Source: Escherichia coli
GTDB lineage: Bacteria; Pseudomonadota; Gammaproteobacteria; Enterobacterales; Enterobacteriaceae
Strand: one strand, 5' to 3'
DNA length: 64,000 nt
NCBI RefSeq assembly: GCF_003790525.1
Contig: NZ_CP033635.1
The translations under genes were made by a program, and so were the position numbers. Below the pieces are notes generated by a model, which saw only the letters and a list, made by a program, of their open reading frames with translations, did not search any database and was not told the origin of the DNA. Of this stretch, positions 1-26,534 are shown one piece after another (the first letter of the stretch is position 1; each line of letters begins with the position of its first letter).

Positions 1-3265
<3,265 letters not shown>

Positions 3266-3428
3266 TTAAACGGCTTAACAAAAATCCAGTAATATGGATT
3301 AAAAAGCAGACTAAACCCCAAATATTTCTTATGTTTTACTTTAGACCTATTCACAGCGGTTATTGTGTGCAAATACGCCTCTTGTTACAACCTTAACCCC
3401 AATGACCGATTTTCGGGAGAGCGACACC

Positions 3429-4067
3429 ATGAGTTTATTTGATAAAAAGCATCTGGTTTCCCCCGCCGATGCCCTGCCTGGACGTAACACCCCGATGCCC
3501 GTAGCCACGCTGCATGCGGTCAACGGTCACTCAATGACCAATGTACCTGACGGAATGGAGATTGCCATTTTTGCGATGGGTTGTTTCTGGGGTGTGGAGC
3601 GTCTGTTCTGGCAGTTACCCGGCGTTTACAGCACCGCCGCAGGCTATACCGGCGGCTATACGCCAAATCCGACTTATCGGGAAGTGTGCTCCGGCGATAC
3701 TGGCCATGCCGAAGCGGTGCGCATTGTTTACGATCCATCCGTCATCAGCTATGAGCAGTTGCTACAAGTATTTTGGGAGAATCACGATCCCGCCCAGGGA
3801 ATGCGTCAGGGCAATGACCACGGTACGCAGTATCGTTCAGCGATTTATCCTCTGACCCCAGAACAGGATGCCGCCGCTCGCGCCAGTCTGGAACGTTTTC
3901 AGGCGGCGATGCTTGCCGCCGATGACGATCGTCGCATCACCACGGAAATCGCTAACGCCACACCGTTTTATTATGCCGAAGATGACCACCAGCAATATCT
4001 GCATAAAAACCCGTATGGTTACTGTGGAATTTGCGGAATTGGCGTCTGTCTGCCGCCGGAAGCATAG
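3429..4067 (+). CDS. msrA: Peptide methionine sulfoxide reductase MsrA
   Basis: Internal start [12 protein letters not shown]... gives 212 aa; GCFWG active-site motif; the longer track ORF from 3363 is rejected as a 5' extension. Confidence 0.93.
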
Positions 4068-4107
4068 CGTTACGGGTACAAATGTAGATTGTTGATAAAG
4101 TGCTATT

Positions 4108-4211
4108 TGTCTATGCCGGATGCGGCGTAAACGCCTTACCAGGCCTACAAAATCGTCCAAAATCAATAAATTGTGGGGACTGCGTAGGCCTGTTCGGCAT
4201 AGCGCATCAGC
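4108..4211. repeat. REP/BIME palindromic repeats (two inverted REP units)
   Basis: gccggatgcggcgtaaacgccttaccaggcctac followed by an inverted gtaggcctgttcggcatagcgcatcag unit; typical enterobacterial REP in an intergenic position. Confidence 0.6.
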
Positions 4212-4389
4212 CAGTTTTTCATTTTTCAGCTGTCTGAATTTTAACCCTCTGGCGGCTTTACAGTACCTTACGCTATACTAGCCACTGAAAATGCCGGTTC
4301 ACTTTCTTCGAATCGGCTTTCAATGTGTATTTCACACAAATTAATCAACTTCCCCTTCCGAGGATCTGGCCTGAAAGGTCGGATAAGAT

Positions 4390-5733
4390 ATGTTAAACAG
4401 TATTTTAGTCATACTCTGTTTGATCGCTGTAAGTGCGTTCTTCTCGATGTCCGAGATCTCGCTTGCCGCCTCACGCAAAATCAAACTTAAACTGCTGGCT
4501 GATGAAGGCAATATAAATGCCCAACGCGTTCTGAATATGCAGGAAAATCCCGGCATGTTCTTTACCGTGGTCCAAATCGGTCTGAACGCAGTGGCGATTC
4601 TCGGCGGTATCGTCGGTGATGCGGCATTTTCTCCAGCTTTTCACAGCCTGTTCTCCCGCTATATGTCGGCAGAACTCTCTGAGCAACTGAGCTTTATTCT
4701 CTCTTTCTCGTTAGTGACTGGCATGTTTATCCTGTTTGCGGATTTAACCCCGAAACGCATCGGTATGATTGCGCCAGAAGCTGTGGCTTTGCGTATCATC
4801 AACCCGATGCGCTTCTGCCTGTACGTTTGCACCCCGCTGGTGTGGTTCTTCAACGGACTGGCGAACATAATCTTCCGTATTTTCAAACTGCCAATGGTAC
4901 GTAAAGATGACATCACTTCTGATGACATCTACGCGGTAGTGGAAGCCGGTGCGCTGGCAGGCGTGTTACGTAAACAGGAACACGAGCTGATTGAAAACGT
5001 CTTTGAGCTGGAATCCCGTACCGTTCCGTCTTCAATGACACCGCGTGAAAACGTGATTTGGTTTGATCTCCACGAAGATGAGCAAAGTCTGAAGAATAAG
5101 GTGGCGGAACATCCGCACTCTAAGTTTCTCGTCTGTAATGAAGATATTGACCACATCATCGGATATGTCGATTCTAAAGACCTGCTGAACCGCGTGCTGG
5201 CTAACCAAAGCCTGGCACTGAACAGCGGCGTACAAATTCGCAACACGCTGATTGTGCCGGATACGTTAACCCTTTCAGAAGCGTTGGAAAGTTTTAAAAC
5301 CGCAGGTGAAGACTTCGCGGTGATCATGAACGAGTACGCGCTGGTAGTGGGGATCATCACCCTCAACGACGTGATGACCACGCTGATGGGCGATCTGGTC
5401 GGTCAGGGGCTGGAAGAGCAGATTGTCGCCCGTGATGAGAACTCATGGCTGATTGACGGCGGCACCCCGATTGACGACGTCATGCGCGTGCTGGATATTG
5501 ACGAGTTCCCGCAGTCGGGCAACTACGAAACCATCGGCGGCTTTATGATGTTTATGCTGCGTAAGATCCCGAAACGCACCGATTCGGTGAAATTCGCCGG
5601 CTACAAATTTGAAGTGGTGGATATCGATAACTACCGTATCGACCAACTGCTGGTGACCCGGATCGACAGCAAGGCCACCGCCCTTTCGCCAAAACTGCCT
5701 GACGCTAAAGATAAAGAAGAAAGCGTCGCGTAA
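4390..5733 (+). CDS. ytfL: UPF0053 inner-membrane protein YtfL (CNNM/TlyC-type, CBS domains)
   Basis: 447-aa ORF with N-terminal TM segments and C-terminal CBS-like region; recognised as YtfL. Confidence 0.92.
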   Translation: MLNSILVILCLIAVSAFFSMSEISLAASRKIKLKLLADEGNINAQRVLNMQENPGMFFTVVQIGLNAVAILGGIVGDAAFSPAFHSLFSRYMSAELSEQLSFILSFSLVTGMFILFADLTPKRIGMIAPEAVALRIINPMRFCLYVCTPLVWFFNGLANIIFRIFKLPMVRKDDITSDDIYAVVEAGALAGVLRKQEHELIENVFELESRTVPSSMTPRENVIWFDLHEDEQSLKNKVAEHPHSKFLVCNEDIDHIIGYVDSKDLLNRVLANQSLALNSGVQIRNTLIVPDTLTLSEALESFKTAGEDFAVIMNEYALVVGIITLNDVMTTLMGDLVGQGLEEQIVARDENSWLIDGGTPIDDVMRVLDIDEFPQSGNYETIGGFMMFMLRKIPKRTDSVKFAGYKFEVVDIDNYRIDQLLVTRIDSKATALSPKLPDAKDKEESVA

Positions 5734-5750
5734 CCCCCAGAAACATCAAC

Positions 5751-5778
5751 GGCTCCTGAATCAGGAGCCGTCTTATTA
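5751..5778 (+). terminator. Hairpin terminator downstream of ytfL (possibly bidirectional with ytfK)
   Basis: ggctcctgaatcaggagcc perfect stem-loop followed by a T-rich tract (gtcttatt). Confidence 0.55.
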
Positions 5779-5794
5779 CTGCATAGCACTTTGG

Positions 5795-6001
5795 TTAAGC
5801 CATCTCTGTTTGCAGACGCATAACCTGACGGTTAACTTCGGACATCACTGACAAATGCAGCTTATCCTTCACTTTTGGGATAAGAATCTTACCCTTATCA
5901 AATTCAAAAGCGCCAACGTCCTTGATGTATAACCGTCCACGGAACAGGATCTTTACGTACTTCGCCACCTGAAGTGGGTTGTACCGTTGGAAAATTTTCA
6001 T
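5795..6001 (-). CDS. ytfK: Small protein YtfK (DUF1107)
   Basis: Internal start [17 protein letters not shown]... gives 68 aa; upstream extension in the track ORF rejected. Confidence 0.88.
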
Positions 6002-6325
6002 TGTTATCTCCTGCTGAGTATTACGCCTGTGCGGTGCCACAATCGGCCCAACGATTATGAGGCGCAAATTTTAATGCCTAGTGACTATAGACTATCCGGG
6101 CAATGTTTCCACCGCGTATAACTTTTTTTACCTAAAGGTTACAATTATTCAGAATTATCTTTTTACCGAAGCGCGGTCTTCAGTATAAGCATTCATTTTT
6201 CATATGATTTGTGCGCTTGACCGCAAACTGGCATCACACTTGCGGGAAATTCGATAAATAGCACATATGATTAAAACTCAGACCCAAGTGGTCGGATCAC
6301 CTGCATATCATAAGAAGGAAACACC

Positions 6326-6883
6326 ATGACCCTACGCAAGATTCTGGCACTCACCTGCCTGCTGTTGCCGATGATGGCTTCCGCACATCAGTTCGAAACC
6401 GGTCAGCGAGTGCCGCCGATTGGCATCACCGATCGTGGCGAGTTGGTGCTTGATAAAGATCAGTTTAGCTACAAAACCTGGAACAGCGCGCAGTTAGTGG
6501 GAAAAGTGCGAGTACTGCAACATATTGCTGGTCGCACCTCTGCAAAAGAGAAAAACGCGACGCTGATTGAAGCGATTAAATCAGCAAAGTTACCGCACGA
6601 TCGTTACCAGACCACCACCATTGTTAACACCGACGACGCAATTCCGGGTTCCGGCATGTTTGTGCGCAGCAGTCTGGAGAGTAATAAAAAGCTTTATCCC
6701 TGGTCGCAGTTTATTGTTGATAGCAATGGCGTCGCACGCGGTGCCTGGCAGCTGGATGAAAAAAGTTCCGCTGTAGTGGTGCTGGATAAAGACGGTCGCG
6801 TGCAATGGGCCAAAGACGGGGCGCTTACTCAGGAAGAGGTGCAGCAAGTGATGGACCTGCTGCATAAATTAATTAATAAATAG
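6326..6883 (+). CDS. ytfJ: Periplasmic protein YtfJ
   Basis: 185-aa ORF with signal peptide [20 protein letters not shown]; recognised as YtfJ. Confidence 0.9.
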
Positions 6884-7613
6884 ACACTCTGAACCCCGGA
6901 TTCAGGAACGACTCGCGCGGAGTGTAATCCAGCGGTTTACCCTGCCAGTCGTGAACGTGCGCTCCGGCAGCCGCAGCCACAGCATGACCAGCGGCGGTAT
7001 CCCAAATATTCGTTGGCCCGAAACGCGGGTACAGCTGCGCCTGTCCTTCCGCCACCAGGCAGAATTTCAGCGAAGAGCCGATGGACGTGGTCTGATGTTC
7101 GCCAAGCTGTTGCAGATACTCTTTCAGCTCCGCATCTGCATGGGAACGGCTGATCACCACCAGCGGCGGGCGCGCATCGCGGACCTGAATCTGCTTGCGC
7201 ACACCGCACTCTTCTTTCCAGGCTTTGCCTTCTGCCGCGCTGTACATTACGTTCATTACCGGCGCATACACCACACCTAAAATCGGTTTGCCGTGGTCGA
7301 TGAGCGCAATGTTAACGGTGAATTCGCCATTACGTTTAATAAACTCTTTAGTACCATCCAGCGGGTCTACCAGCCAGTAACGCTGCCAGTGCTGACGGAC
7401 TTCCCAACCGGGAGGATCTTCTTCAGAAAGGACCGGAATATCCGGTGTCAGCGTACGTAAACCGTCCATGATAACGGTGTGTGCGGCAATATCCGCTGCC
7501 GTTACCGGAGAATTGTCCGCTTTGCTGACGACGTCCATCGGTTTCGTCCCGTCGTAGACCTGCATAATGGCATCGCCTGCATTCCGTGCAAGCTGGCATA
7601 CTTGATCTAACAT
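6873..7613 (-). CDS. cysQ: 3'(2'),5'-bisphosphate nucleotidase CysQ
   Basis: 246-aa [23 protein letters not shown]...; inositol-monophosphatase family motifs (WLVDPLDGT). Confidence 0.94.
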
Positions 7614-7802
7614 TTCTCCACCTCGTCTCTGTGAGCGGTGTTAACTTATTGTTTTACTTATACCCTATCGTTAATGAATGCGCCAACTGTGATAGTGTCA
7701 TCATTTTCAAAGCGTAAAATTGTGGCATTCTTCACTGTTCTATAAGTAATACGTTTATTCTCCCTTTTCTTTCGTATTCCCGATGATAAAAGGATGTCCC
7801 TG

Positions 7803-9746
7803 ATGATTAAGTTTAGCGCAACGCTCCTGGCCACGCTGATTGCCGCCAGTGTGAATGCAGCGACGGTCGATCTGCGTATCATGGAAACCACTGATCTGCA
7901 TAGCAACATGATGGATTTCGATTATTACAAAGACACCGCCACGGAAAAATTCGGACTGGTACGTACGGCAAGCCTGATTAATGATGCCCGCAATGAAGTG
8001 AAAAACAGCGTACTGGTCGATAACGGCGATTTGATTCAGGGGAGTCCGCTGGCAGATTACATGTCGGCGAAAGGATTAAAAGCAGGTGATATTCACCCGG
8101 TCTATAAGGCATTAAATACGCTGGACTATACCGTCGGCACGCTTGGCAACCATGAGTTTAACTACGGTCTGGATTACCTGAAAAATGCGCTGGCGGGAGC
8201 GAAATTCCCTTATGTAAATGCCAACGTCATTGACGCCAGAACCAAACAGCCAATGTTTACACCGTATTTAATTAAAGACACCGAAGTGGTCGATAAAGAC
8301 GGAAAAAAACAGACGCTGAAGATTGGCTATATTGGCGTCGTACCGCCGCAAATCATGGGCTGGGATAAAGCTAATTTATCCGGGAAAGTGACGGTGAATG
8401 ATATTACCGAAACCGTGCGCAAATACGTGCCTGAAATGCGCGAGAAAGGTGCCGATGTCGTTGTCGTTCTGGCGCATTCCGGGCTGTCTGCCGATCCGTA
8501 TAAAGTGATGGCGGAAAACTCAGTTTATTACCTCAGTGAAATTCCGGGCGTTAACGCCATTATGTTTGGCCATGCTCACGCCGTTTTCCCGGGTAAAGAT
8601 TTTGCTGATATCGAAGGAGCTGATATCGCGAAAGGCACGCTGAATGGTGTTCCGGCGGTAATGCCAGGCATGTGGGGCGATCATCTTGGTGTGGTCGACT
8701 TACAACTCAGTAATGACAGCGGTAAATGGCAGGTAACACAGGCGAAAGCGGAAGCACGACCGATTTACGACATCGCTAATAAAAAATCCCTCGCGGCGGA
8801 AGACAGCAAGCTGGTAGAAACACTCAAAGCCGATCACGATGCCACACGCCAGTTCGTCAGCAAGCCAATCGGTAAATCTGCCGACAATATGTATAGCTAT
8901 CTGGCACTGGTGCAGGACGATCCGACCGTGCAGGTGGTGAACAACGCGCAAAAAGCGTATGTCGAGCATTACATTCAGGGCGATCCGGATCTGGCAAAAC
9001 TGCCAGTGCTTTCAGCTGCCGCACCGTTTAAAGTTGGTGGTCGCAAAAATGACCCGGCAAGCTATGTGGAGGTGGAAAAAGGTCAGCTGACTTTCCGTAA
9101 TGCCGCCGATCTTTATCTCTACCCCAATACGCTGATTGTGGTGAAAGCCAGCGGTAAAGAGGTGAAAGAGTGGCTGGAATGCTCTGCCGGACAGTTTAAC
9201 CAGATTGATCCTAACAGCACGAAACCACAGTCACTCATTAACTGGGATGGTTTCCGCACTTATAACTTTGATGTGATTGATGGTGTGAATTATCAGATTG
9301 ATGTTACCCAGCCCGCCCGTTATGACGGCGAGTGCCAGATGATTAATGCCAATGCGGAAAGGATTAAGAACCTGACCTTTAACGGCAAGCCGATTGATCC
9401 GAACGCCATGTTCCTCGTTGCCACCAATAACTATCGCGCTTACGGCGGCAAATTTGCCGGTACGGGCGACAGCCATATCGCTTTTGCTTCACCGGATGAG
9501 AACCGCTCGGTGCTGGCAGCGTGGATTGCTGATGAGTCGAAACGTGCGGGGGAAATTCACCCGGCGGCAGATAACAACTGGCGTTTAGCACCGATAGCCG
9601 GCGATAAGAAACTGGATATCCGTTTCGAAACCTCTCCGTCAGATAAAGCCGCAGCGTTTATTAAAGAAAAAGGGCAGTATCCGATGAATAAAGTCGCGAC
9701 CGATGATATCGGGTTTGCAATTTATCAGGTGGATCTGAGTAAGTAA
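7803..9746 (+). CDS. cpdB: 2',3'-cyclic-nucleotide 2'-phosphodiesterase / 3'-nucleotidase CpdB
   Basis: Start at [19 protein letters not shown] (signal peptide) gives 647 aa; calcineurin-like and 5'-nucleotidase motifs (GNHEF). Confidence 0.93.
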
Positions 9747-9789
9747 TACACTTCTTTTTCGGCCTGCAAATCATCAACCGCATCCGGCA

Positions 9790-9874
9790 TTTATTGGCGG
9801 ATGCGATGCTGACGCATCTTATCCGCCCTACAAGCCATGAACCTTAGTCCGGATAAGCGCAGCGCATCCGGCAG
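9790..9874. repeat. REP palindromic repeats
   Basis: ggcggatgcgatgctgacgcatcttatccgccctaca and ccggataagcgcagcgcatccggcag between the cpdB and ytfH 3' ends. Confidence 0.5.
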
Positions 9875-10255
9875 TTATGCCGCACGTTCATCCCGCACCG
9901 CTAACACCTCGGGCAAATTCAACTCAATCCAGTCCGCCAGTGCAGCAACCTTTTCGCTCACCTGCTCGCCCAGCGGCGTGAGGCTATATTCCACATGCGG
10001 CGGCACCACCGGATACGCGATACGGTTAAGAAAACCATCCTGTTCTAATGCCTGTAACGACTGCGCAAGCATCTTTTCACTCACCCCGCCCATTTTGCGC
10101 CGCAGGTCGCTAAAGCGATGAGTACCTTCGCGTAGCGCCACCAGAATCAACACCCCCCAACGGCTGGTGACGTGTTTCAACACCTCGCGCGACGGGCACT
10201 GTTCGGCGAAGAGGTTACCCTCTTTCAGTTGTTGCGACAGGCTAACCTGACTCAT
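9875..10255 (-). CDS. ytfH: HxlR-type transcriptional regulator YtfH
   Basis: Start at MSQVSLSQQLKEGNLFAEQCP... gives 126 aa; winged-helix HxlR family; track ORF 5' extension rejected. Confidence 0.88.
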   Translation of the reverse strand: MSQVSLSQQLKEGNLFAEQCPSREVLKHVTSRWGVLILVALREGTHRFSDLRRKMGGVSEKMLAQSLQALEQDGFLNRIAYPVVPPHVEYSLTPLGEQVSEKVAALADWIELNLPEVLAVRDERAA

Positions 10256-10278
10256 TTCATACTTACCTTTTTGTACGT

Positions 10279-10295
10279 ACTTACTAAAAGTAAGT
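10279..10295. promoter_or_regulatory. Operator-like palindrome in the ytfH/qorB divergent promoter region
   Basis: ACTTAC-TAAAA-GTAAGT (6-bp perfect inverted arms, 5-bp AT spacer) between the divergent starts at 10255 and 10344. Assignment as a YtfH operator is inference. Confidence 0.35.
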
Positions 10296-10343
10296 TTAGG
10301 TGGTAGCGTATTTAAACACAAGACAAACCGATGGAGGCTTCCC

Positions 10344-11204
10344 ATGATCGCAATTACCGGCGCAACCGGCCAACTTGGTCACTATGTTATTGAATCCTTG
10401 ATGAAAACGGTTCCTGCCAGCCAAATAGTGGCTATCGTTCGTAATCCGGCAAAAGCCCAGGCACTGACAGCACAAGGCATTACCGTGCGTCAGGCTGATT
10501 ACGGCGATGAAGCCGCACTGACATCTGCGCTTCAGGGAGTGGAAAAACTACTGCTGATCTCTTCCAGCGAAGTGGGTCAACGTGCCCCGCAGCATCGTAA
10601 TGTTATTAATGCCGCAAAGGCGGCTGGTGTGAAATTTATCGCTTATACCAGTCTGCTTCACGCGGATAAATCTCCGCTCGGCCTCGCCGATGAGCACATT
10701 GAGACGGAGAAAATGTTGGCTGATTCTGGCATCGTTTACACCCTGCTGCGCAACGGCTGGTACAGCGAAAACTACCTCGCCAGCGCCCCGGCAGCACTGA
10801 AACACGGCGTATTTATCGGTGCGGCGGGCGATGGCAAAATCGCCTCAGCAACGCGGGCAGATTATGCGGCAGCTGCGGCACGCGTGATTAGCGAAGCAGG
10901 TCACGAAGGCAAGGTTTATGAACTGGCAGGTGATAGCGCCTGGACACTGACACAGTTAGCGGCGGAACTCACCAAACAGAGCGGCAAACAGGTTACCTAT
11001 CAAAATCTGAGTGAAGCTGATTTCGCCGCGGCACTGAAAAGCGTCGGACTGCCTGACGGACTGGCGGATATGCTGGCGGATTCTGACGTTGGCGCATCGA
11101 AAGGTGGTCTGTTTGATAACAGCAAAACGCTTAGCAAATTGATTGGCCGCCCAACGACAACGTTAGCCGAAAGCGTAAGCCATCTTTTTAATGTTAATAA
11201 CTAG
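10344..11204 (+). CDS. qorB: NAD(P)H:quinone oxidoreductase QorB (YtfG), NmrA-like
   Basis: 286-aa ORF MIAITGATGQLGHYVIESL... with Rossmann GxxGxxG. Confidence 0.92.
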   Translation: MIAITGATGQLGHYVIESLMKTVPASQIVAIVRNPAKAQALTAQGITVRQADYGDEAALTSALQGVEKLLLISSSEVGQRAPQHRNVINAAKAAGVKFIAYTSLLHADKSPLGLADEHIETEKMLADSGIVYTLLRNGWYSENYLASAPAALKHGVFIGAAGDGKIASATRADYAAAAARVISEAGHEGKVYELAGDSAWTLTQLAAELTKQSGKQVTYQNLSEADFAAALKSVGLPDGLADMLADSDVGASKGGLFDNSKTLSKLIGRPTTTLAESVSHLFNVNN

Positions 11205-11311
11205 TTAATTAAAGTGGCATCCTCCCGCATCCTCTCTGATAATGACGGGATGCCGGGAGCAATCATGTCTGCTTCCTGAACTTTCTTCTGACAGATCAAT
11301 GGATGCCAGTA

Positions 11312-12277
11312 ATGATTAGCGGCGTGCTGTACGCCCTATTAGCAGGGTTGATGTGGGGGCTTATTTTTGTCGGGCCGTTGATCGTGCCGGAATACCCGGC
11401 GATGTTGCAGTCGATGGGGCGTTATCTGGCGTTAGGGTTAATTGCGCTACCCATTGCCTGGCTGGGACGCGTGCGTCTGCGTCAGTTGGCGCGTCGCGAC
11501 TGGCTTACCGCCTTGATGCTCACTATGATGGGCAACCTCATCTATTACTTCTGCCTTGCCAGTGCCATTCAACGTACTGGCGCGCCTGTTTCCACGATGA
11601 TTATCGGCACCCTGCCGGTGGTGATTCCCGTTTTTGCCAATCTGCTTTATAGCCAGCGCGACGGCAAACTCGCGTGGGGAAAACTCGCCCCGGCACTGAT
11701 TTGTATTGGCATCGGCCTGGCGTGTGTGAATATTGCTGAGTTAAACCACGGACTCCCCGATTTTGACTGGGCACGTTATACCTCAGGCATCGTGCTAGCG
11801 TTAGTTTCCGTGGTCTGCTGGGCATGGTATGCCCTGCGCAACGCCCGCTGGCTGCGGGAAAATCCCGACAAACATCCAATGATGTGGGCGACGGCGCAGG
11901 CGCTGGTCACGCTGCCGGTTTCTCTCATCGGCTATCTCGTCGCCTGTTACTGGCTGAATATGCAAACGCCGGACTTCTCCTTACCCTTTGGCCCCCGTCC
12001 GCTGGTGTTTATTAGTCTGATGGTTGCGATAGCCGTGCTTTGCTCATGGGTTGGCGCACTCTGCTGGAACGTCGCCAGCCAGCGATTACCGACAGTGATT
12101 CTCGGGCCGCTGATTGTTTTCGAAACGCTGGCAGGTTTGCTGTACACCTTTTTACTCCGCCAGCAAATGCCGCCGCTAATGACGCTGAGCGGTATCGCGC
12201 TGTTAGTGATTGGCGTGGTCATCGCGGTCAGAGCAAAACCAGAAAAACCTTTAACTGAATCTGTCTCAGAAAGTTGA
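11312..12277 (+). CDS. ytfF: Inner-membrane protein YtfF (DMT/EamA-type transporter)
   Basis: Polytopic membrane ORF; start placed at MISGVLYALLAG (321 aa). An ATG three codons upstream (11303) is equally possible. Confidence 0.85.
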   Translation: MISGVLYALLAGLMWGLIFVGPLIVPEYPAMLQSMGRYLALGLIALPIAWLGRVRLRQLARRDWLTALMLTMMGNLIYYFCLASAIQRTGAPVSTMIIGTLPVVIPVFANLLYSQRDGKLAWGKLAPALICIGIGLACVNIAELNHGLPDFDWARYTSGIVLALVSVVCWAWYALRNARWLRENPDKHPMMWATAQALVTLPVSLIGYLVACYWLNMQTPDFSLPFGPRPLVFISLMVAIAVLCSWVGALCWNVASQRLPTVILGPLIVFETLAGLLYTFLLRQQMPPLMTLSGIALLVIGVVIAVRAKPEKPLTESVSES

Positions 12278-12335
12278 CACGCTGGCAGTGAGTTAAATAA
12301 GCCTCTGCTACGTAAGGGTTATAGCTTTTGCCTTA

Positions 12336-12358
12336 AAGATGCATTTAAAATGCATCTT
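12336..12358. promoter_or_regulatory. NsrR operator in the ytfE promoter
   Basis: AAGATGCATTT-A-AAATGCATCTT, a perfect 11-1-11 palindrome about 27 bp upstream of the ytfE ATG; matches the known NsrR box. Confidence 0.8.
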
Positions 12359-12384
12359 ATCTTATTAAGAATGAGGTATCAGCT

Positions 12385-13047
12385 ATGGCTTATCGCGACC
12401 AACCTTTAGGTGAACTGGCGCTCTCTATTCCTCGCGCTTCGGCTCTGTTTCGTAAATATGATATGGATTACTGCTGTGGCGGTAAGCAGACGCTGGCGCG
12501 CGCGGCGGCACGTAAAGAACTGGATGTTGACGTCATTGAAGCCGAACTGGCAAAGCTTGCTGAACAACCGATTGAGAAAGACTGGCGTAGCGCCCCGCTG
12601 GCGGAAATCATCGACCACATTATTGTGCGCTATCACGATCGCCATCGCGAGCAGCTGCCGGAGCTGATCCTGCAAGCGACTAAAGTCGAGCGCGTTCACG
12701 CCGACAAACCAAGTGTGCCAAAAGGGCTGACAAAATACCTGACTATGCTGCATGAAGAGCTTTCCAGCCATATGATGAAAGAAGAGCAAATTCTCTTCCC
12801 GATGATCAAACAAGGCATGGGCAGCCAGGCAATGGGGCCAATCAGCGTAATGGAAAGCGAGCACGATGAAGCGGGCGAACTGCTGGAAGTGATCAAACAC
12901 ACCACCAATAACGTCACACCGCCGCCGGAAGCCTGCACCACCTGGAAAGCGATGTATAACGGCATTAATGAACTGATTGATGACCTGATGGAGCACATCA
13001 GTCTGGAAAACAATGTACTATTCCCGCGCGCGCTGGCGGGTGAGTGA
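12385..13047 (+). CDS. ytfE: Iron-sulfur cluster repair di-iron protein YtfE (RIC)
   Basis: 220-aa [36 protein letters not shown]...; hemerythrin-like motifs. Confidence 0.94.
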
Positions 13048-13054
13048 TTTGTTC

Positions 13055-13090
13055 GATCAACGATCCTGACATGGGCAGGATCGTTGATTA
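13055..13090. terminator. Hairpin between convergent ytfE and the accessory ORF
   Basis: tcaacgatcct-gacatgggc-aggatcgttga stem-loop (11-bp arms) immediately after the ytfE stop; weak T-tract. Confidence 0.5.
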
Positions 13091-13091
13091 T

Positions 13092-14585
13092 TCAGTCATT
13101 CAGTGGAAGTAATTCATTGTTGTAACTGGTGTACTTACCTTCAACGGTAAGCAAACTGCCGTTTTTATCAAGATGCGCCGCATCGAGTTGTCGAGTCTCA
13201 TTACGCCGCTTCGCATCACGTACCAGCCCATCGCCTACGTAATAAATATAGTGGTCATCATGAGCAAAGGTATCTGATAATTGACCATTGGCGTATTTAA
13301 ACCACGTCCATTGGCCTTTCAGTTCAAAATGCTCAACCGTGTCTTCATCAATAAAATACGTATAGCGATCGTCATGTGCTAAATAATTTAATGGTGTGCC
13401 ATCGGGGCTTTTATACCACTGCCATTGCCCATTAATATCAAAAATAGTCACATCATCGCGCGCGATGAAATAAATTTTGTTCCCTACAACATTAGCACCT
13501 TTCTGTAATTCTTGTTGTGGGTCTGGTAAATGTATGACCGACAGCGTTTTTTCGACCGCAGATATATATTTCACCAGATAGAGCGAATCTTTATATTGCG
13601 CCACATTCTCCGTCAGCGGGCGAAAATATTCCGGATCAACATCAGGAATTGTCGCAACCCGGCAGTCATTAGCACGCCTGGAAGCATCACGCGTCATCCA
13701 GGTTACTTTATCCCGCTGTAGGTCAAATATACTTCGGCAGTTTTTACCGAACGCATAACGTTTCTCCCCGTCTTTATCGCGATAAATTAGCAGTGAACCG
13801 GCTATCCAGCGCACAATATGAAAGGTATCCGGATCGGCGTTGATGGCATCTCCATTCACAAAGACCTGCGATTTAGTCCGCCAGATTGTATCCCAGGGTC
13901 CCGGATTACTTTTGCTTTCGCAGCTATTAGGTGAATAAATAATGGGACGACGTGTCCAGGGTTTAATGTCAAGAATAGAATACCCTTGCGCACTACCTAA
14001 CCAGCGCCCCTGAAAGTAAAGATTGCGACGATCTTTCAGCACATCCGCGGAATCAAGTGAATTCATCCTTCCCCCCACCTGTTGCAGCGAATCCATATCG
14101 ACCTGCTTTTCGCCGTGATTATCATCCGTGCGTTCGCCATCAAAATAGAGGCTGTCTTTATCGGCAGCAAAACGCCCCCATGCGCGGAATGTTGCGGCAT
14201 CGACTTTCGGTGTTCCCGGCGGGTTCTGAACTATTTTCCCTGCCCATAAAATATGGCGGCCATCAGTCAACCAGTCGAAACGCCAACCACCGTTGGTTCT
14301 GATATAAGCGCCACCATCCACCCGCACAAAATCATTATTGATATCATCAGGAGAATCATATTCATCATCAGTGCCGTCAGATACACGGCGCAGTTGTTTG
14401 AACCTCACCTGCGGTAAATGAATATCCGGAAAATAGAGTCCGTAACCATCGCTATCTTCAACAATATATTTTGTTCCTTGCCCCCACGGTTGGTAATAAA
14501 AAGAGGCAGATGGTACGCCGGAGCAGGCTATTGAATTGAGTGAAAATAAAGCCAGTGCGAGACAAACGGGTTTAATTGGTAACAT
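13092..14585 (-). CDS. Secreted repeat protein, DKNYY-like (function unknown), longer paralog
   Basis: 497-aa ORF; N-terminal signal peptide MLPIKPVCLALALFSLNSIACSG; motifs VDAATF...FAADKDSLYFDG and ADPDTF...YRDKDGE; C-terminal W-rich tandem repeats; paralogous to the next ORF. Confidence 0.78.
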   Translation of the reverse strand: MLPIKPVCLALALFSLNSIACSGVPSASFYYQPWGQGTKYIVEDSDGYGLYFPDIHLPQVRFKQLRRVSDGTDDEYDSPDDINNDFVRVDGGAYIRTNGGWRFDWLTDGRHILWAGKIVQNPPGTPKVDAATFRAWGRFAADKDSLYFDGERTDDNHGEKQVDMDSLQQVGGRMNSLDSADVLKDRRNLYFQGRWLGSAQGYSILDIKPWTRRPIIYSPNSCESKSNPGPWDTIWRTKSQVFVNGDAINADPDTFHIVRWIAGSLLIYRDKDGEKRYAFGKNCRSIFDLQRDKVTWMTRDASRRANDCRVATIPDVDPEYFRPLTENVAQYKDSLYLVKYISAVEKTLSVIHLPDPQQELQKGANVVGNKIYFIARDDVTIFDINGQWQWYKSPDGTPLNYLAHDDRYTYFIDEDTVEHFELKGQWTWFKYANGQLSDTFAHDDHYIYYVGDGLVRDAKRRNETRQLDAAHLDKNGSLLTVEGKYTSYNNELLPLND

Positions 14586-14617
14586 AGCGTCATCCTGATG
14601 CTGTTAGCGTGAATAGG

Positions 14618-15775
14618 TTATTTAAATAAGGGTTTAAGCCCGCTCGGGGGTTGCTTCACCGATAACCAACCTCCCTTGCCTAAGTTATAACGCAGCCATT
14701 CACCTTGTTGGGCGTGTTCTTTCCCAATTCCAGTCGCTTGTTGAGTGTAAAGCTGCCCGTCTGTTGATATAAACGTGTTAGTTAATCCCCAACTACCCCC
14801 TGCTTCAAGTGAGTCGGAGAGATCCTCTGGCTTGAGATTAACCAACTCACCTTCGCCCAGGGCGTTAATTGTGACTTTATATATTTGGTTCTTATATAAA
14901 CCGGTATTCCGAACAAACAGATAAAAATATTCCGGATCAACTCCCGCCAGCGTTTCATAAATACACTCACTGCCCGCTGGAGTGGCTTCATATTTGAGCC
15001 AGGACACGTTATTCAGACCAATATTAAAAGGTGCACAGCGATAGCTGGTATCCTCCAGCTCATAGTCACGCTCGCCGCTTTTATCGCGATAAACTAAGCG
15101 TTCGCCAGGCATCCAACGTTTAATCTGAAAAGTTTTGCGATCGGCGGGCAGTGGCTTGCCATTAACAATCACCTGCGAATTTGTCTGCACAACAAATTGC
15201 AGGGAGGAATCATGCCGCAGGATTTGAAATCCGTCAGCGCTTCCCAACCAGTGCCCCTTATGCCAAAGACTATTTTTATCACGCAGTAAATTCCAGATGT
15301 CCGTCTCTTCAAGCGTTGACATATCCACCTGCTTATCACCGCTATTATCATCGGTACGCTGACCATCAAAATAGATACTGCGTTTATCAGCAGCGAAAGC
15401 GCCGAATGCCTGAAAACTGGCAGCGTCGACTATAGGTTTACCGGGGGGATTTTTCAGGACTTTGCCAGACCAAAGAACAGAGCGTCCATCGGTGAGCCAG
15501 GCATGTTCGCAATCCCCCTCATCATCGCAATCGAACTTATCGGGATTAAAATCGGACAGTAACCGGGAATCTTGTTTATTGGCTAAATTGGCAATACGCC
15601 AAAGGCGGGAAAAATTAATATCTGGTAATTCGGAGAGGATCTCATCTTTTTCCCCCTTCTGTTCGACAACATAAACCGTGCCTTTCTCCTGCTGGCGGTA
15701 ATAAAAATCCGCGCCCCAGGAAGGTGAAATAGAGGGAGGTAATGCGGCGATTAATAACCAACTGCGCTTAACCAT
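14618..15775 (-). CDS. Secreted repeat protein, DKNYY-like (function unknown), shorter paralog
   Basis: Start placed at MVKRSWLLIAALPPSISPSWGA (signal peptide, 385 aa). The track ORF extends to 16003 but would overlap the cycA 3' end, so that extension is rejected. Confidence 0.72.
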   Translation of the reverse strand: MVKRSWLLIAALPPSISPSWGADFYYRQQEKGTVYVVEQKGEKDEILSELPDINFSRLWRIANLANKQDSRLLSDFNPDKFDCDDEGDCEHAWLTDGRSVLWSGKVLKNPPGKPIVDAASFQAFGAFAADKRSIYFDGQRTDDNSGDKQVDMSTLEETDIWNLLRDKNSLWHKGHWLGSADGFQILRHDSSLQFVVQTNSQVIVNGKPLPADRKTFQIKRWMPGERLVYRDKSGERDYELEDTSYRCAPFNIGLNNVSWLKYEATPAGSECIYETLAGVDPEYFYLFVRNTGLYKNQIYKVTINALGEGELVNLKPEDLSDSLEAGGSWGLTNTFISTDGQLYTQQATGIGKEHAQQGEWLRYNLGKGGWLSVKQPPSGLKPLFK

Positions 15776-15849
15776 AATGAACTCTGCAACGAGTGGCAAA
15801 GATCCACGGTAAGCTCGCGCCTGAGGGCTGTCTATGATGGTAGATTTTT

Positions 15850-15890
15850 TTAGGAATATATAAAGACAAAGGCACCCGCAGGTGCCTTTC
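15850..15890 (-). terminator. cycA terminator hairpin
   Basis: aaaggcacc-cgc-aggtgccttt stem-loop about 20 nt after the cycA stop, followed on the minus strand by a T-rich tract. Confidence 0.6.
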
Positions 15891-15908
15891 AGAGTTATAA
15901 ACGCGGCA

Positions 15909-17312
15909 TTACTTCGCCATGCGTTTTTTACCAATAAACAGCCAGCCCAGCCCCAGCGCGATAAACCACAGCGGGGTAACCAGCAGCGCCTGGCGGGTGT
16001 CATCTTCCAGTGTCAACAACACCAGAACAAACACAAAGAACGCCATACATACCCAGCACATCAGCTTGCCGAGTGGCATCTTGTAGATCGACTTCTCATG
16101 CAGATGAGGACGCTGTTTGCGATACACCAGGTACGAGCAAAGGATAATCGTCCAGACAAACATAAACAGAATCGCGGAAACGGTTGTAATCATCGTGAAC
16201 GCGCCAATCACGCTGGGATTCACATACAACATCACCACGCCGCCGAGCAGACAGATACAAGAGAAGGTCAGCCCTTTCGCGGGTACTGCGCGCTTAGAGA
16301 GTTTAGCGAACGCTTTCGGTGCCACACCTTCCTGGGCCAGACCAAACAGCATACGGCTGGTAGAGAAGACACCGCTGTTAGCGGAAGACGCCGCAGAGGT
16401 CAGCACCACAAAGTTGATCACGCTGGCAGCCGCAGGCAAACCTACCAACACAAACAGTTCAACGAACGGGCTTTTCTCCGGGACTACCGAACTCCACGGC
16501 GTCACGGACATAATCACAATCAGCGAGAAGACGTAGAACATAATGATACGGATCGGAATGGAGTTAATCGCGCGTGGCAGTGATTTCTCTGGATCTTTGG
16601 TTTCCGCAGCGGTGGTACCTACCAGCTCAATCCCTACGAAAGCGAAAACCGCTATCTGGAATCCAGCAAAGAAGCCACTTAAGCCTTTCGGGAACCAGCC
16701 GCCGTCATTCCACAAATGTGCAAATGATGCTTCCACACCGGTCGGTGACTGAAAGTGCATCGCCACCATGACCAGGCCGACAACAATCAGCGACACGATG
16801 GCGACGATTTTGATCATCGCAAACCAGAACTCCATCTCACCGAACATTTTTACCGTGGCGAGGTTTAGAACCAGTAACAGAATGATCACGGATAACGAAG
16901 CAACCCAGTCAGAAAGCCCAGGGAACCAGAATTGCGCATAGGCGGTAATGGCAACCACGTCTGCCATACCGGTTACAACCCAGCAGAACCAGTAAGTCCA
17001 GCCGGTGAAATATCCTGCCCACGGCCCGAGTAAATCGGAAGCGAAGTCACTAAAAGATTTGTATTCCAGATTCGAAAGCAGCAATTCCCCCATTGCCCGC
17101 ATCACGAAAAAGAGCATAAAACCGATGATCATATAAACGAAAATGATCGACGGCCCGGCAAGGCTAATCGTTTTGCCGGACCCCATAAACAACCCTGTAC
17201 CAATGGCACCGCCAATGGCAATAAGCTGAATATGTCGGTTTGTGAGATTGCGCCGTAGCGACTGTTCAGCCGGAGCCTGATCATCGGCAACGACTTTTAC
17301 CTGATCTACCAT
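15909..17312 (-). CDS. cycA: D-serine/D-alanine/glycine:H+ symporter CycA (APC family)
   Basis: 467-aa ORF MVDQVKVVADDQAPAEQSLRRNLTNRHIQLIAIGGAIGTGLF...; amino-acid permease signature. Confidence 0.94.
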   Translation of the reverse strand: MVDQVKVVADDQAPAEQSLRRNLTNRHIQLIAIGGAIGTGLFMGSGKTISLAGPSIIFVYMIIGFMLFFVMRAMGELLLSNLEYKSFSDFASDLLGPWAGYFTGWTYWFCWVVTGMADVVAITAYAQFWFPGLSDWVASLSVIILLLVLNLATVKMFGEMEFWFAMIKIVAIVSLIVVGLVMVAMHFQSPTGVEASFAHLWNDGGWFPKGLSGFFAGFQIAVFAFVGIELVGTTAAETKDPEKSLPRAINSIPIRIIMFYVFSLIVIMSVTPWSSVVPEKSPFVELFVLVGLPAAASVINFVVLTSAASSANSGVFSTSRMLFGLAQEGVAPKAFAKLSKRAVPAKGLTFSCICLLGGVVMLYVNPSVIGAFTMITTVSAILFMFVWTIILCSYLVYRKQRPHLHEKSIYKMPLGKLMCWVCMAFFVFVLVLLTLEDDTRQALLVTPLWFIALGLGWLFIGKKRMAK

Positions 17313-17620
17313 GTTTTTTTCTTCCTGTACCTGTCTGTGTTGTTCAGGCTCTACGGCCTTTAGTCAGTCTATGATACGACGAATCTGTATCGGGACTCAT
17401 CGATATTAGGTAACAATACGCGGGATGAATACTAAGATTTAGATCTAATGTTAATTTTATGTTTAAAGTGAGTGTCATATCACGGTGATAACGCGAAACA
17501 GCTCACAAAAATACACGCTTACGGGGTCTTTGCAACATAAAATAGCGCCGTTTGGCAAACTGAAGGGTTTATTGCTGAATGCCTGCTCCCCTCTGGTTCG
17601 AGGGGAACAGAATGCGCTGC
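17313..17620 (-). promoter_or_regulatory. cycA promoter and 5' UTR
   Basis: 308-bp non-coding region upstream of cycA. The cycA leader is a known GcvB sRNA target, but the site was not mapped here. Confidence 0.4.
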
Positions 17621-18241
17621 TTAGAGGATTTCCAGCAGTTCGACTTCAAACACCAGGGTGCTGAACGGAGGGATGGACGCGCCTGCGCCACGCTCGCCAT
17701 ATGCCAGTTCCTGCGGGATAGTCAGTTCCCATTTAGAACCTACCGGCATCAGAGTCAGTGCTTCAATCCAGCCAGGGATCACGCCGTTAACCGGGAATTC
17801 AGCTGGCTCGCCGCGAGCAACGGAGCTGTCAAACACGGTGCCGTCGATCAGTTTACCGGTGTAATGAACACGAACGCGGTCGGTACGTGCCGGAATTGCG
17901 CCTTCACCCTGGTTGATCACGCGGAATTGCAGGCCAGATTCGGTGCTATTTACACCTTCTTTTTTGGCGTTTTCTTCCAGGTATTTCACACCTTCAGCAG
18001 CCATCGCCTGGAAACGCTGACGACGAACGGCATCGGCGCGTTCGTGGATTTCACGCAGCGCGCGGTGCACCACATCAACCGGAACAGCCGGATGTTTGCC
18101 TTCCAGCGCATCAGCAATGCCTGCAACCAGTGCTTCTGGCAGCAGCCCTTCCAGGCCAGATTCACTCAGTTGTTGCCCTACCTGCAAACCAATGCCGTAG
18201 CTTGCTTGCGCTTCGATGGTGTCAAAAGTTGGGGTGGTCAT
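17621..18241 (-). CDS. fklB: FKBP-type peptidyl-prolyl cis-trans isomerase FklB
   Basis: Start at [20 protein letters not shown] gives 206 aa; track ORF 5' extension rejected. Confidence 0.92.
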
Positions 18242-18458
18242 CGTATTTCCTTTCTTAGGGTATAAAGTAGCGGGCAGCATATCAGCCACACTTCTTTGGG
18301 TAAAACTTTGTCGCGGGAATGATGACAAATCCCGGGGAAAAAGAAACAATAGCAATATCCCGTATGAATATAATAAAGGCGGGTTTACCACGGACATCAT
18401 AGCGTTAGCTTATTCATAGGCTATGATTGAGGAACAAGACGCGGAGCAGGAGGAAACC

Positions 18459-19088
18459 ATGCCCGGGCGCTTTGAACTAAAACCAACCCTGGAGAAAGTC
18501 TGGCACGCGCCGGACAATTTTCGCTTCATGGACCCGCTGCCGCCGATGCATCGCCGGGGAGTCATTATTGCGGCAATAGTGCTGATTATCGGTATTCTTC
18601 TGCCTGGAGATGAAACACGCCAGATGCCTGTTGTCACCCGCGAAGCGCAGTTAGATATGCAATCACCCCCCCCAGGTGAAGCACAGCTACAGGCACATTT
18701 AGTGACGCCGCAAAACGATCCGGATCAGGTCGCCCCGGTCGCGCCGGAACCTATTCAGGAAGGTCAACCTGAAGAGCCACCTGTTGCAGAGACACAATCT
18801 TTCCAACCGGAAAGTGGTATCGATCAACAGTGGCGGACATATCGCGTAGAACCAGGCAAGACCCTTGCCCAGCTGTTCCGCGACCATAATTTGCCGCCTA
18901 CAGACGTGTACGCTATGGCCCAGGTCGAGGGCGCGGATAAACCACTCAGTAACCTGCAAAATGGTCAGATTGTTAAAATCCGTCAAAATGCGAATGGGGT
19001 GGTTACCGGCTTAACCATTGATACGGGAAATAATCAGCAAGTCCTGTTCACCCGCCAACCTGATGGTAATTTCATCCGCGCACGCTGA
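18459..19088 (+). CDS. ytfB: Cell-division protein YtfB (OapA/LysM-like C-terminal domain)
   Basis: Start at MPGRFELKPTLEKVWHAPDNFRFMDPLPP; TM segment then a Pro/Gln-rich linker. The upstream ATG at 18423 is possible. Confidence 0.82.
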   Translation: MPGRFELKPTLEKVWHAPDNFRFMDPLPPMHRRGVIIAAIVLIIGILLPGDETRQMPVVTREAQLDMQSPPPGEAQLQAHLVTPQNDPDQVAPVAPEPIQEGQPEEPPVAETQSFQPESGIDQQWRTYRVEPGKTLAQLFRDHNLPPTDVYAMAQVEGADKPLSNLQNGQIVKIRQNANGVVTGLTIDTGNNQQVLFTRQPDGNFIRAR

Positions 19089-19727
19089 TTACCCACGGGC
19101 AGGGTTCACCAAAAGCCAGCTCAGGATGGTCTCTTTGATCACCCTGCGTCTGGCTTCCAAAGCCTCAGGTGAAACCATGCTAATGTGATAAACCATCCCC
19201 AGTGTGTACTGGTTTATTAAATAATATGCACCCAGTGCGGCGATATTAATGTTGATTTGTAAGGGATCAATATATTTCTTAAAGGTTTTCTGCCGCTGCC
19301 CTTCTTCTAATAATGAAGCCATTGACTGCAAATGTGCATGGTTAATTTCAGCGAGGCGTTTTGATTTTTTATAATGCACACCCTTACTTTGGTTTTCACT
19401 ATGGACAATTTTTAAAAACCACGGGTTATTGATGTAATAATCCCAAGTAAAATCAATTATTTTCTCGATCGCAATAACCGGCGAAAGCCCTGAAATGTCA
19501 AGCTCTCTCTCTTTTTCGCGAATATCGTTCCAGGTATATTCCAGTACTTCAATAAACAAATTTTCTTTATTACCAAAGTGGTGATAAACCGTCTGTTTAC
19601 TGCACCCTGCTGCCTTAACAATATTATCTACTCTGGCCCCTTCGTAACCATATTCGGCAAATTCATTAACCGCGCATAGCAGCAATTTTTCCTTCAGGTT
19701 TTGTGCGTGACTGGTATCAAGATACAT
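19089..19727 (-). CDS. TetR/AcrR-family transcriptional regulator (intact)
   Basis: Start placed at [58 protein letters not shown] (TetR HTH), with a GGGGA-type RBS upstream. Track ORF upstream Met codons lack an RBS. Divergent from the downstream operon. Confidence 0.8.
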
Positions 19728-19848
19728 TCCACTTCCCCACTTCCTCTTCGTGATGGCTATCATAACCGGATTTGATCTCAGCGACAGCAAAAAGGATAAA
19801 AGTCGTAATTTCATTGAGTTATCAAATTACCTGTGATCACTCTCGCAT

Positions 19849-19870
19849 ATCAACCAACTAGATGGTTGAT
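19849..19870. promoter_or_regulatory. Candidate TetR operator palindrome in the divergent promoter region
   Basis: ATCAACCA-ACTAGA-TGGTTGAT (8-bp perfect inverted arms) between the TetR start (19727) and the SDR start (19937). Confidence 0.4.
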
Positions 19871-19936
19871 CTTTTTACCTTCCAGTCGCAAGCTAATCAT
19901 CACTCAAGGAAACAATATTCAAAAGAGGGTCATTGT

Positions 19937-20728
19937 ATGAAATCCACTCGTCCTGTTGCTGTCATCACTGGTGCTGCACGTGGTATTGGAAAGGGTTGTG
20001 CGCTGGAACTTGCTCGTAGCGGGTTTAACCTGCTGATTAACGATCGCCCTGATGCCGACAGCGTAGAAAAACTGCATATCACACAACAAGAATGTATGGC
20101 AGAAGGCGTGGAGGTCATTTGCTTCCCTGCCGATGTTGGCGATCTCTCCCTGCATGAAGAGATGCTCGACGCGGCGCAAAACCAGTGGGGGCGTCTGGAC
20201 TGTCTGCTCAACAACGCAGGGATTTCAGTGAAAAAGCGCGGTGACCTCCTCGATCTCGAGCCAGACAGTTTCGACCAAAACATTGCCATCAATACCCGCG
20301 CGCCGTTCTTCCTCGCTCAGGCATTCAGTAAACGTCTGCTCGCACAGCCGAAACCGGAAGCGGAGCTGCCGCACCGCTCGATTATTTTTGTCAGTTCAAT
20401 CAACGCCATCATGCTGGCGATGAATCGCGGCGAATACACCATTGCCAAAACCGCCGTTTCTGCCGCTGCTCGTCTGTTTGCTGCTCGCCTTTGTAATGAA
20501 CAAATTGGCGTTTATGAAGTGCGTCCTGGTCTCATCAAAACCGATATGACTATTCCGGCAACGGCCTATTACGACGAACTGATTGCCAAAGGTCTGGTGC
20601 CGTGGGGACGTTGGGGTTATCCGGCTGATATTGCTTCCACTGTCCGCGCGATGGCGGAAGGTAAACTGATTTACACCTGTGGTCAGGCGGTCGCCATCGA
20701 CGGCGGCTTAAGTATGCCGCGCTTCTGA
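19937..20728 (+). CDS. Short-chain dehydrogenase/reductase (SDR) family oxidoreductase
   Basis: Start MKSTRPVAVITGAARGIGKG (TGxxxGxG) with AGAGGG RBS; NNAG and YxxxK (YTIAK) catalytic motifs. Confidence 0.85.
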   Translation: MKSTRPVAVITGAARGIGKGCALELARSGFNLLINDRPDADSVEKLHITQQECMAEGVEVICFPADVGDLSLHEEMLDAAQNQWGRLDCLLNNAGISVKKRGDLLDLEPDSFDQNIAINTRAPFFLAQAFSKRLLAQPKPEAELPHRSIIFVSSINAIMLAMNRGEYTIAKTAVSAAARLFAARLCNEQIGVYEVRPGLIKTDMTIPATAYYDELIAKGLVPWGRWGYPADIASTVRAMAEGKLIYTCGQAVAIDGGLSMPRF

Positions 20729-20737
20729 GGCTGAATC

Positions 20738-21580: not shown

Positions 21581-21589
21581 GGAATAATC

Positions 21590-22366: not shown

Positions 22367-22375
22367 GGAAATTGT

Positions 22376-25995: not shown

Positions 25996-26015
25996 TATTG
26001 CAAAGGTTAATCACT

Positions 26016-26492
26016 ATGCGAAATATAATTAGATCTATTAATGCTCTGCTTGCAACATTGAATATTACCATTTTGGCGATCATTGTGGCATGTGTGACAT
26101 GGCAAGTGGTAGCACGATTTATATTTAAAAGCCCCAGTATATTTACGGATGAACTCAGTCGTTTGCTTTTTATTTGCCTTGGCCTTTTTGGTGGTGCCTA
26201 TACCGCGGGGCAGAACCGGCATCTGGCGATTGATCTGCTTCCTATGATGCTGAAAGGAAAAGCCCGGCGTCATTTATTTTTGTGTATTCAGATTATCGTT
26301 ATTATCTTCTCTACCATCATTATGGTATATGGTGGTGGGCTATTAACGCTGGACACATTCGATTCAGGTCAAACCTCACCCGCTTTAGGCTGGCAGATGG
26401 GATATATCTATATGAGTATCCCGATTAGTGGTGTTCTTATTATTATATACACCATAGATATGGTTTTAACAGAACTTAAACAACCACTCTAA
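26016..26492 (+). CDS. TRAP transporter small permease (DctQ family)
   Basis: Four-TM small hydrophobic protein; start placed at MRNIIRSINALLATLNIT with AAGG RBS. An ATG at 25992 overlapping the upstream stop is an alternative. Confidence 0.78.
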   Translation: MRNIIRSINALLATLNITILAIIVACVTWQVVARFIFKSPSIFTDELSRLLFICLGLFGGAYTAGQNRHLAIDLLPMMLKGKARRHLFLCIQIIVIIFSTIIMVYGGGLLTLDTFDSGQTSPALGWQMGYIYMSIPISGVLIIIYTIDMVLTELKQPL

Positions 26493-26534
26493 AGATAATA
26501 AACAACAACCAACCATAGTAGGAATGGAGAAATT

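Follow-up and report, generated by a model that had tools for sequence, protein, structure and literature searches.

The convergent ytfJ and cysQ genes overlap by 11 bp in an Escherichia coli strain without ytfI

Chromosomal integration hot spots between core genes are known in the pan-genomes of E. coli and the enterobacteria. The junction between the convergent genes ytfJ and cysQ resembles such hot spots in that one inter-gene position holds unrelated, mostly low-GC cargo that differs by lineage; however, each of its inserts is tiny, with one or two genes in 0.9-2.1 kb, the ytfI segment located there in E. coli K-12 has no detected integrase, tRNA, target-site duplication, or terminal inverted repeats, and only the insert of Citrobacter youngae shows a flanking duplication (42 nt). 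Overlapping 3' antisense transcript pairs are also known, such as the 'excludon'-type arrangements and the convergent mRNAs that are processed by RNase III. Complete mRNAs of ytfJ and cysQ must likewise be complementary at their 3' ends, although their obligatory overlap, unlike that of excludon-type pairs, is only 11 nt, and we know of no long antisense transcript or regulatory link for these two genes. From full-length RNA profiling of E. coli, convergent gene pairs are said to share a bidirectional intrinsic terminator. In likeness to those pairs, ytfJ and cysQ converge and have one strong hairpin close to their 3' ends; unlike theirs, this hairpin is located inside one coding region rather than between the genes, is devoid of the A-tract and U-tract flanks that define bidirectional terminators, and precedes the ytfJ stop in the ytfJ sense, and hence it cannot serve both genes.

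The locus itself has been described in part. ytfI was presented as a K-12-specific inserted segment that is absent from strains SE11 and SE15 (Higashi et al., 2016; PMC4720273, S10 Fig), and H-NS was found to bind ytfI in K-12 and to spread to cpdB, cysQ, ytfJ, and ytfK (PMC4720273). As the insertion and its absence from SE11 and SE15 are already published, the core of the present finding is known. The feature is an ordinary one. We analyzed a stretch of 64,000 nucleotides from an E. coli genome (assembly GCF_003790525.1, contig NZ_CP033635.1; hereafter the window), which has the ytfI-absent state given in PMC4720273 for SE11 and SE15, as opposed to K-12 in which ytfI is present. Taking all lines of comparison together, we consider it highly probable that the ytfJ/cysQ overlap is ancestral, that ytfI is a later insertion, and that the transcripts of the two genes end inside each other's gene.

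The gene pair in the window and in K-12

The features of the gene pair in the window are as follows.

6326..6883, plus strand: ytfJ coding sequence, periplasmic YtfJ family protein, 185 aa, stop TAG at 6881-6883 (ORF list)
6873..7613, minus strand: cysQ coding sequence, 3'(2'),5'-bisphosphate nucleotidase, 246 aa, stop TAA (TTA on the plus strand) at 6873-6875 (ORF list)
6873..6883, no strand assigned: convergent 3' overlap of ytfJ and cysQ, 11 bp, TTAATAAATAG (sequence and ORF list)
6869..6876, no strand assigned: site matching the insertion point of ytfI in K-12 (BLAST against K-12 and haplotype comparison)

The overlap reads as I-Y-stop of cysQ on the minus strand and as (I)N-K-stop of ytfJ on the plus strand. 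The original prediction of an 11-bp overlap proved to be real, as both stops lie at these positions and the gene ends given by PGAP agree; the identical 11-bp overlap is found in the RefSeq PGAP annotation of E. coli B C3029, GN04133, and 2014C-3075. In the last of these strains (NZ_CP027447.1), the junction region is 100% identical to the window, compared with only 98.5% over window positions 1..27180, which shows that the window derives from another strain. That the overlap could be an artefact of ORF calling, the true end of one gene lying upstream and the coding regions not truly overlapping, is so improbable as to be negligible; nothing was found in its favour other than the usual reservation that a program sets ORF ends mechanically, whereas stop codons, unlike starts, are unambiguous ends. 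Moreover, the alignments of both proteins to their family models extend to the last residues: YtfJ of the window is a full-length member of PF09695 (1.5e-77, 259 bits against a cutoff of 24) and covers positions 1-183 of 184 of TIGR01626 (306.5 bits, cutoff 151), while CysQ covers positions 1-246 of 246 of the NF008182 equivalog model (526 bits, cutoff 379) and scores 378 bits against TIGR01331 (cutoff 229). The C-terminal residues of both proteins are conserved across 80 genomes (for CysQ, the last 11 residues, ending in FRVSIY, at 80/80 loci), and the identity of the junction sequence in many independent genomes speaks against a frameshift error. Within a 40-kb annotated neighbourhood, ytfJ/cysQ is the sole overlapping pair among eight convergent pairs; one of the other seven has a gap of 0 and the others have gaps of 32-128 bp. 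Convergent genes for a LysM-like protein and a TetR/AcrR regulator, with a gap of 0 bp, are found at window ~19087..19088 (L086 32509/32510, closest genome, RefSeq).

The order cysQ, ytfI, ytfJ that the original prediction gave for K-12 is correct: in MG1655 (b4214-b4216), cysQ occupies 4436755-4437495, ytfI 4437707-4438645 (312 aa), and ytfJ 4438708-4439262, and the cysQ and ytfJ stops, rather than meeting directly, have 1212 bp between them. When the window was aligned to this locus, the flanking genes were the same, with 98% identity on both flanks, and the 1212-bp segment was missing. The earlier statement that no ytfI-like gene lies at the junction was therefore right, as homology to K-12 breaks at 6868|6873 with nothing in between; by BLAST of the window, the ytfJ-side homology stops at 6868 and the cysQ-side homology starts at 6873. 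Homology to other Escherichia on the ytfJ side reaches ~6876, which makes the breakpoint ambiguous within TTAA (6873-6876). The ytfI segment is positioned immediately 3' of the cysQ stop. The CysQ C-terminus (...FRVSIY) is unchanged between the window and K-12, and the YtfJ tail differs, with 185 aa ending in LLHKLINK in the window and 184 aa ending in LLQKLLK in K-12.

In K-12, the GC content is 36% in ytfI and 28% and 34% in its two spacers, compared with 55% in cysQ and 52% in ytfJ. The sole ORF of the segment is ytfI; no transposase or other mobility gene, integrase, or tRNA was detected in it, and its ends have neither convincing terminal inverted repeats nor a target-site duplication beyond the ambiguous TTAA. 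We considered and rejected a transposon or IS-type element, the repeat search at the ends having given internal hairpins only. Searches with YtfI gave no meaningful family match in Pfam, PADLOC, NCBIfam, or PHROGs, nothing in phages (tblastn), and no match on true plasmids, as the four 'plasmid' matches fall in E. coli records 0.65 to 4.9 Mb long, which are probably chromosomal pieces. The K-12 segment (L001) has a strong hairpin at each end, one at 3495..3544 just past the cysQ stop (z -4.0) and the other at ~4650..4690 between the ytfI and ytfJ stops (CCCCTATC...GATAGGGG), which would provide cysQ and ytfJ of K-12 each with a terminator-like structure of its own. The window also contains a second strain-variable tail-to-tail insert, of polarity opposite to ytfI, being present here and absent from K-12: a 2.9-kb segment of 46% GC at 13049..15927, between the convergent ytfE and cycA, which in K-12 are 44 bp apart. 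Its two genes are annotated as hypothetical proteins of 497 and 385 aa, for which Pfam gave no match above threshold and PADLOC gave none at all.

Distribution and polarity of the overlap

We searched 5426 complete E. coli genomes with a 601-bp query centred on the window junction. The query matched 5418 genomes and was contiguous in 3795 (70%); the K-12 insert was present in 1623 (30%), and the two counts add up to exactly 5418. The locus is a clean dimorphism in E. coli, with the direct overlap in ~70% and ytfI in ~30%, and the window, which tested negative for the ytfI-bearing haplotype, belongs to the direct-junction class of 3795 genomes. The carriers of ytfI comprise K-12 derivatives, O157:H7, O55:H7, and many clinical and animal isolates; the copies of the segment are mostly 96-100% identical to that of K-12, and a few are only 80-95% identical. 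The 1623 carriers, which extend beyond K-12, and the diverged copies show that the ytfI segment is neither K-12-specific nor recent. In a few genomes, IS1 is found within or adjoining the segment, and ETEC1738 has lost ytfI and part of ytfJ. The original prediction had offered a K-12-lineage insertion as one explanation; the insertion is upheld by the overlap in nearly all outgroups and by the AT-rich nature of the segment, but its confinement to K-12 is not, as 1623 of the 5418 genomes carry it.

For the polarity of the change, one genome per Enterobacteriaceae species was scanned, which yielded 80 loci, and both stop codons were located in each.

11-bp overlap, 41/80 loci: Escherichia whittamii, Escherichia sp. 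E1V33 and MOD1-EC7003, Citrobacter, Salmonella arizonae, Klebsiella, Raoultella, Kosakonia
7-bp overlap, 27/80 loci: Enterobacter, Lelliottia, Leclercia, Pluralibacter, Silvania
4-bp overlap, 6/80 loci: Kluyvera, Yokenella, Trabulsiella
cysQ and ytfJ separated by an insert or spacer, 6/80 loci: E. coli relative L005, E. albertii, C. youngae, two Kluyvera species, K. intermedia

The stops overlap in 74 of the 80 species representatives and, beyond these loci, the 11-bp overlap is also found in E. fergusonii and S. enterica, from which we conclude that the overlap is ancestral to the family and that ytfI is an insertion. Judging from its retention as 11, 7, or 4 bp in those 74 representatives, the overlap is more than stop codons read there by chance. 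ytfJ and cysQ have kept this tail-to-tail arrangement, with their stop regions overlapping, from a time before the genera of the Enterobacteriaceae split, and the window represents the uninterrupted ancestral form. The ytfI gene of K-12 is a later, horizontally acquired, AT-rich single-gene segment placed directly 3' of the cysQ stop; its insertion replaced the last three codons of ytfJ, changing L-I-N-K-stop to L-L-K-stop, and it is now segregating as a presence/absence polymorphism in ~30% of E. coli.

The other explanation that had been offered, a clean loss of ytfI in the window strain, is not needed to explain the data. In such a history, an ancestor of the window lineage would have had ytfI or another insert, and a deletion would have re-fused the genes and left an overlap that falsely looks ancestral; we regard it as improbable. 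In its favour, all sampled insert-free E. coli junctions read CATAAATTAATTAATAAATAG and those of other Escherichia and Citrobacter read CATAAGTTGCTCAATAAATAG, a difference of four clustered, AT-directed substitutions (AAATTAATTAAT versus AAGTTGCTCAAT), while the ytfJ end of K-12 retains the ancestral-like GTTGCTCAA. This combination is indicative that the history was not a simple single insertion into the present haplotype. Furthermore, ytfI copies differ by up to ~3.5-6% among strains, and by more in a few, in keeping with an old age of the segment in the species, and the laboratory strains K-12 (ytfI present) and B (ytfI absent), which we take to be both of phylogroup A, would place presence and absence among relatives. 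However, a deletion would have to restore the exact 11-bp register and the 185-aa YtfJ of Citrobacter, Salmonella, Klebsiella, E. fergusonii, and E. whittamii, and no remnant of the segment is found in the window. Nor can a single deletion between the known ends of the K-12 or L005 segments yield the window sequence; two are required, and the route from a K-12-like haplotype to the window by two deletions was judged less likely than substitutions in the ytfJ tail, which is fast-evolving in all genera, so that four substitutions there are not very unusual. A 13-mer (AATTAATAAATAG) common to the window and to the cysQ-proximal insert ends of L005 and E. albertii was considered as an excision scar and rejected, as the cysQ codons I-Y-stop dictate 11 of the 13 bases and so account for most of this identity. 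Flank polymorphism between B and K-12 is ordinary, with 5 of 585 nt differing in the ytfJ flank and 14 of 603 nt in the cysQ flank. Although ancestral overlap followed by insertion is the reading that we prefer, the E. coli haplotypes could hint at a more complex history, involving old haplotypes, recombination, or loss and re-fusion.

Other inserts at the junction

The six loci at which cysQ and ytfJ are separated carry diverse cargo. The E. coli relative L005 has a divergent ytfI at the junction. In E. albertii NBRC 107761 (L007 4792..5949), the junction is occupied by the gene for a 385-aa pentapeptide-repeat protein of 33% GC, which has weak similarity to PipB/PipB2 and to HECT-type type III effector models. 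The insert of C. youngae ATCC 29220 (L044 4676..6631) carries the gene for a membrane protein of 298 aa, the Cys/Gly/Ser-rich tail of which consists of SSCGG-like units encoded by 15-nt repeats, and then the gene for a radical SAM/SPASM enzyme; by their sequences, the two look like a peptide-modification pair. The ytfJ 3' end is duplicated over 42 nt with 95% identity, and the two copies flank this insert. Two Kluyvera species have a Peptidase_S11 gene at the junction, and K. intermedia has only a 71-bp spacer that contains a hairpin. At all six loci, the cysQ stop is intact, and ytfJ has between one and three of its final codons rewritten (duplicated in C. youngae). Four unrelated types of cargo thus occupy the junction in independent lineages (E. 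coli, E. albertii, C. youngae, Kluyvera), and it behaves as a small recurrent landing site.

Transcript ends and the inverted repeat in ytfJ

As there is no intergenic space, each transcript would have to end inside the other gene. On the ytfJ side, no significant or terminator-like structure was found on the plus strand past the ytfJ stop (folding z -0.4 to -0.5), and the ytfJ transcript probably continues antisense into cysQ until Rho stops it. Two further features are relevant to the transcript ends.

6889..6905, minus strand: small palindrome CTGAAYCCNGGRTTCAG in the last cysQ codons (L-N-P-G-F-R), flagged as terminator-like by a consensus scan
6840..6864, minus strand: inverted repeat in ytfJ codons 172-180 (V-Q-Q-V-M-D-L-L-H), candidate 3' hairpin of cysQ (folding)

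The palindrome was rejected as a conserved terminator, as it is Escherichia-specific and largely dictated by codons, and termination there would precede the stop codon. In other genera, there is a different short GC hairpin with shifted pairs (86% of cells paired, no compensatory change), and the palindrome is probably a by-product of the cysQ codons. An Rfam scan of 5700-8000 found nothing at the ytfJ/cysQ junction; a strong match to the ES239 sRNA (150 bits, E 1.6e-30) is located at 7680..7802 on the minus strand, in the divergent cysQ-cpdB intergenic region.

In the cysQ sense, the inverted repeat in ytfJ is the first strong structure past the cysQ stop, beginning 8 nt 3' of it, and consists of a 9-10-bp stem with a 5-nt loop. 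Folding z-scores in this sense are -2.3 to -3.4, and the 73-nt segment past the cysQ stop folds at -19.6 kcal/mol. Among 73 distinct sequences, the stem core TGCAGCAGG/CCTGCTGCA is nearly invariant, 6 of 10 pairs never vary, and 94.5% of cells are paired. Covariation is limited to one stem pair, which changes from G-C to A-U in three Escherichia sequences with G.U intermediates in E. coli, and the main support for a conserved structure comes from constraint at synonymous sites: the synonymous-site entropy is 0.27 at V172, 0 at Q173, 0.34 at L178, and 0.10 at L179, compared with 0.7-2.3 at other Val and Leu codons of ytfJ. Taken as an intrinsic terminator, the structure has the stem-loop (a 10-bp stem and a 5-nt loop, 8 nt past the cysQ stop) but not the U-tract, as its tail reads CCUCUUCCUG; it went unflagged by the terminator consensus scan, whose threshold is 5 T or more in 8. 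A 91-aa antisense ORF at 6590..6865 (minus strand), which starts at the hairpin, was rejected as a gene because it lies in a codon-complementary frame in which stops are rare by construction, and because in Citrobacter-type sequences a stop interrupts it after ~13 codons.

The insert-bearing loci offer a further comparison. Every one of them has a different strong hairpin 5-15 nt past the cysQ stop, the duplication in C. youngae leaves a perfect copy of the ytfJ hairpin beside the cysQ stop, and in the two Kluyvera lineages with a substitute cysQ hairpin the ytfJ-embedded stem is degraded to 6 bp. Together with the synonymous constraint, these observations suggest that the hairpin serves the cysQ transcript, most likely by marking or protecting the 3' end of its mRNA. 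It may be a weak intrinsic terminator or a stem to which a Rho-terminated transcript is trimmed and by which its 3' end is protected, a role that we put forward tentatively, as it seems somewhat less than an even prospect. The wider proposal, in which the C-terminal coding region of ytfJ doubles as the cysQ 3' UTR, the hairpin acts as terminator or 3'-end stabiliser, any insert that splits the pair must supply a hairpin, and the junction is a recurrent landing site, is likewise possible, and we hold it with reserve as clearly short of an even chance.

Alternatively, the inverted repeat may have nothing to do with cysQ and may reflect the protein sequence with preferred codons, or a structure of the ytfJ mRNA, with cysQ transcripts being ended by Rho non-specifically; we take this to be a serious possibility that falls only a little short of even. 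CTG, CAG, and GTG are indeed preferred codons, but other Leu, Val, and Gln codons of ytfJ vary freely in the same 80 genomes. The single covarying pair and the missing U-tract are in line with a repeat unrelated to cysQ, as is the retention of the ytfJ hairpin in K-12, L005, and E. albertii despite another cysQ hairpin; against it stand the decay of the hairpin in the Kluyvera lineages that have a substitute, and C. youngae, in which the hairpin was duplicated and cysQ kept the perfect copy by its stop. The wobble pairs are divided: in half of the species, the outermost pair can form, as G-C or G.U, in the ytfJ sense alone, whereas three independent G.U pairs fit the cysQ sense only and one, at the stem top, fits the ytfJ sense. 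Owing to the outermost pair, the structure may matter on either strand; in the ytfJ sense, the hairpin precedes the stop codon, where a terminator would be harmful.

Any two complete mRNAs of ytfJ and cysQ are necessarily complementary over at least 11 nt. With transcripts ending as proposed, the two would be complementary over ~11-45 nt, and if the reading of the hairpin as the cysQ 3' structure is right, over ~45 nt instead of 11. Antisense effects or transcriptional interference between the two genes, which the original prediction had named as possible, are plausible from this arrangement.

By itself, the finding is of little weight; the new observations, modest ones, are the hairpin embedded in ytfJ and the recurrence of small insertions. 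What it corrects is a K-12-centred expectation: the ytfI layout is the minority and derived one, the overlapping pair is the norm, and a missing ytfI is no anomaly. Since ytfI recruits H-NS onto its neighbours in K-12, no spreading of H-NS onto cpdB, cysQ, ytfJ, and ytfK would be expected in the window strain (PMC4720273), and strains like it should express cysQ and ytfJ free of such silencing. If the proposed role in cysQ is true, it would explain why the synonymous sites of the ytfJ hairpin are frozen across the Enterobacteriaceae, and each insertion that split the pair would have had to bring or duplicate a hairpin for cysQ. In essence, the repeated small insertions show that tail-to-tail junctions tolerate new genes, and the hairpin, should it be confirmed, would exemplify how the end of transcription of one gene can constrain the coding sequence of its opposite-strand neighbour.
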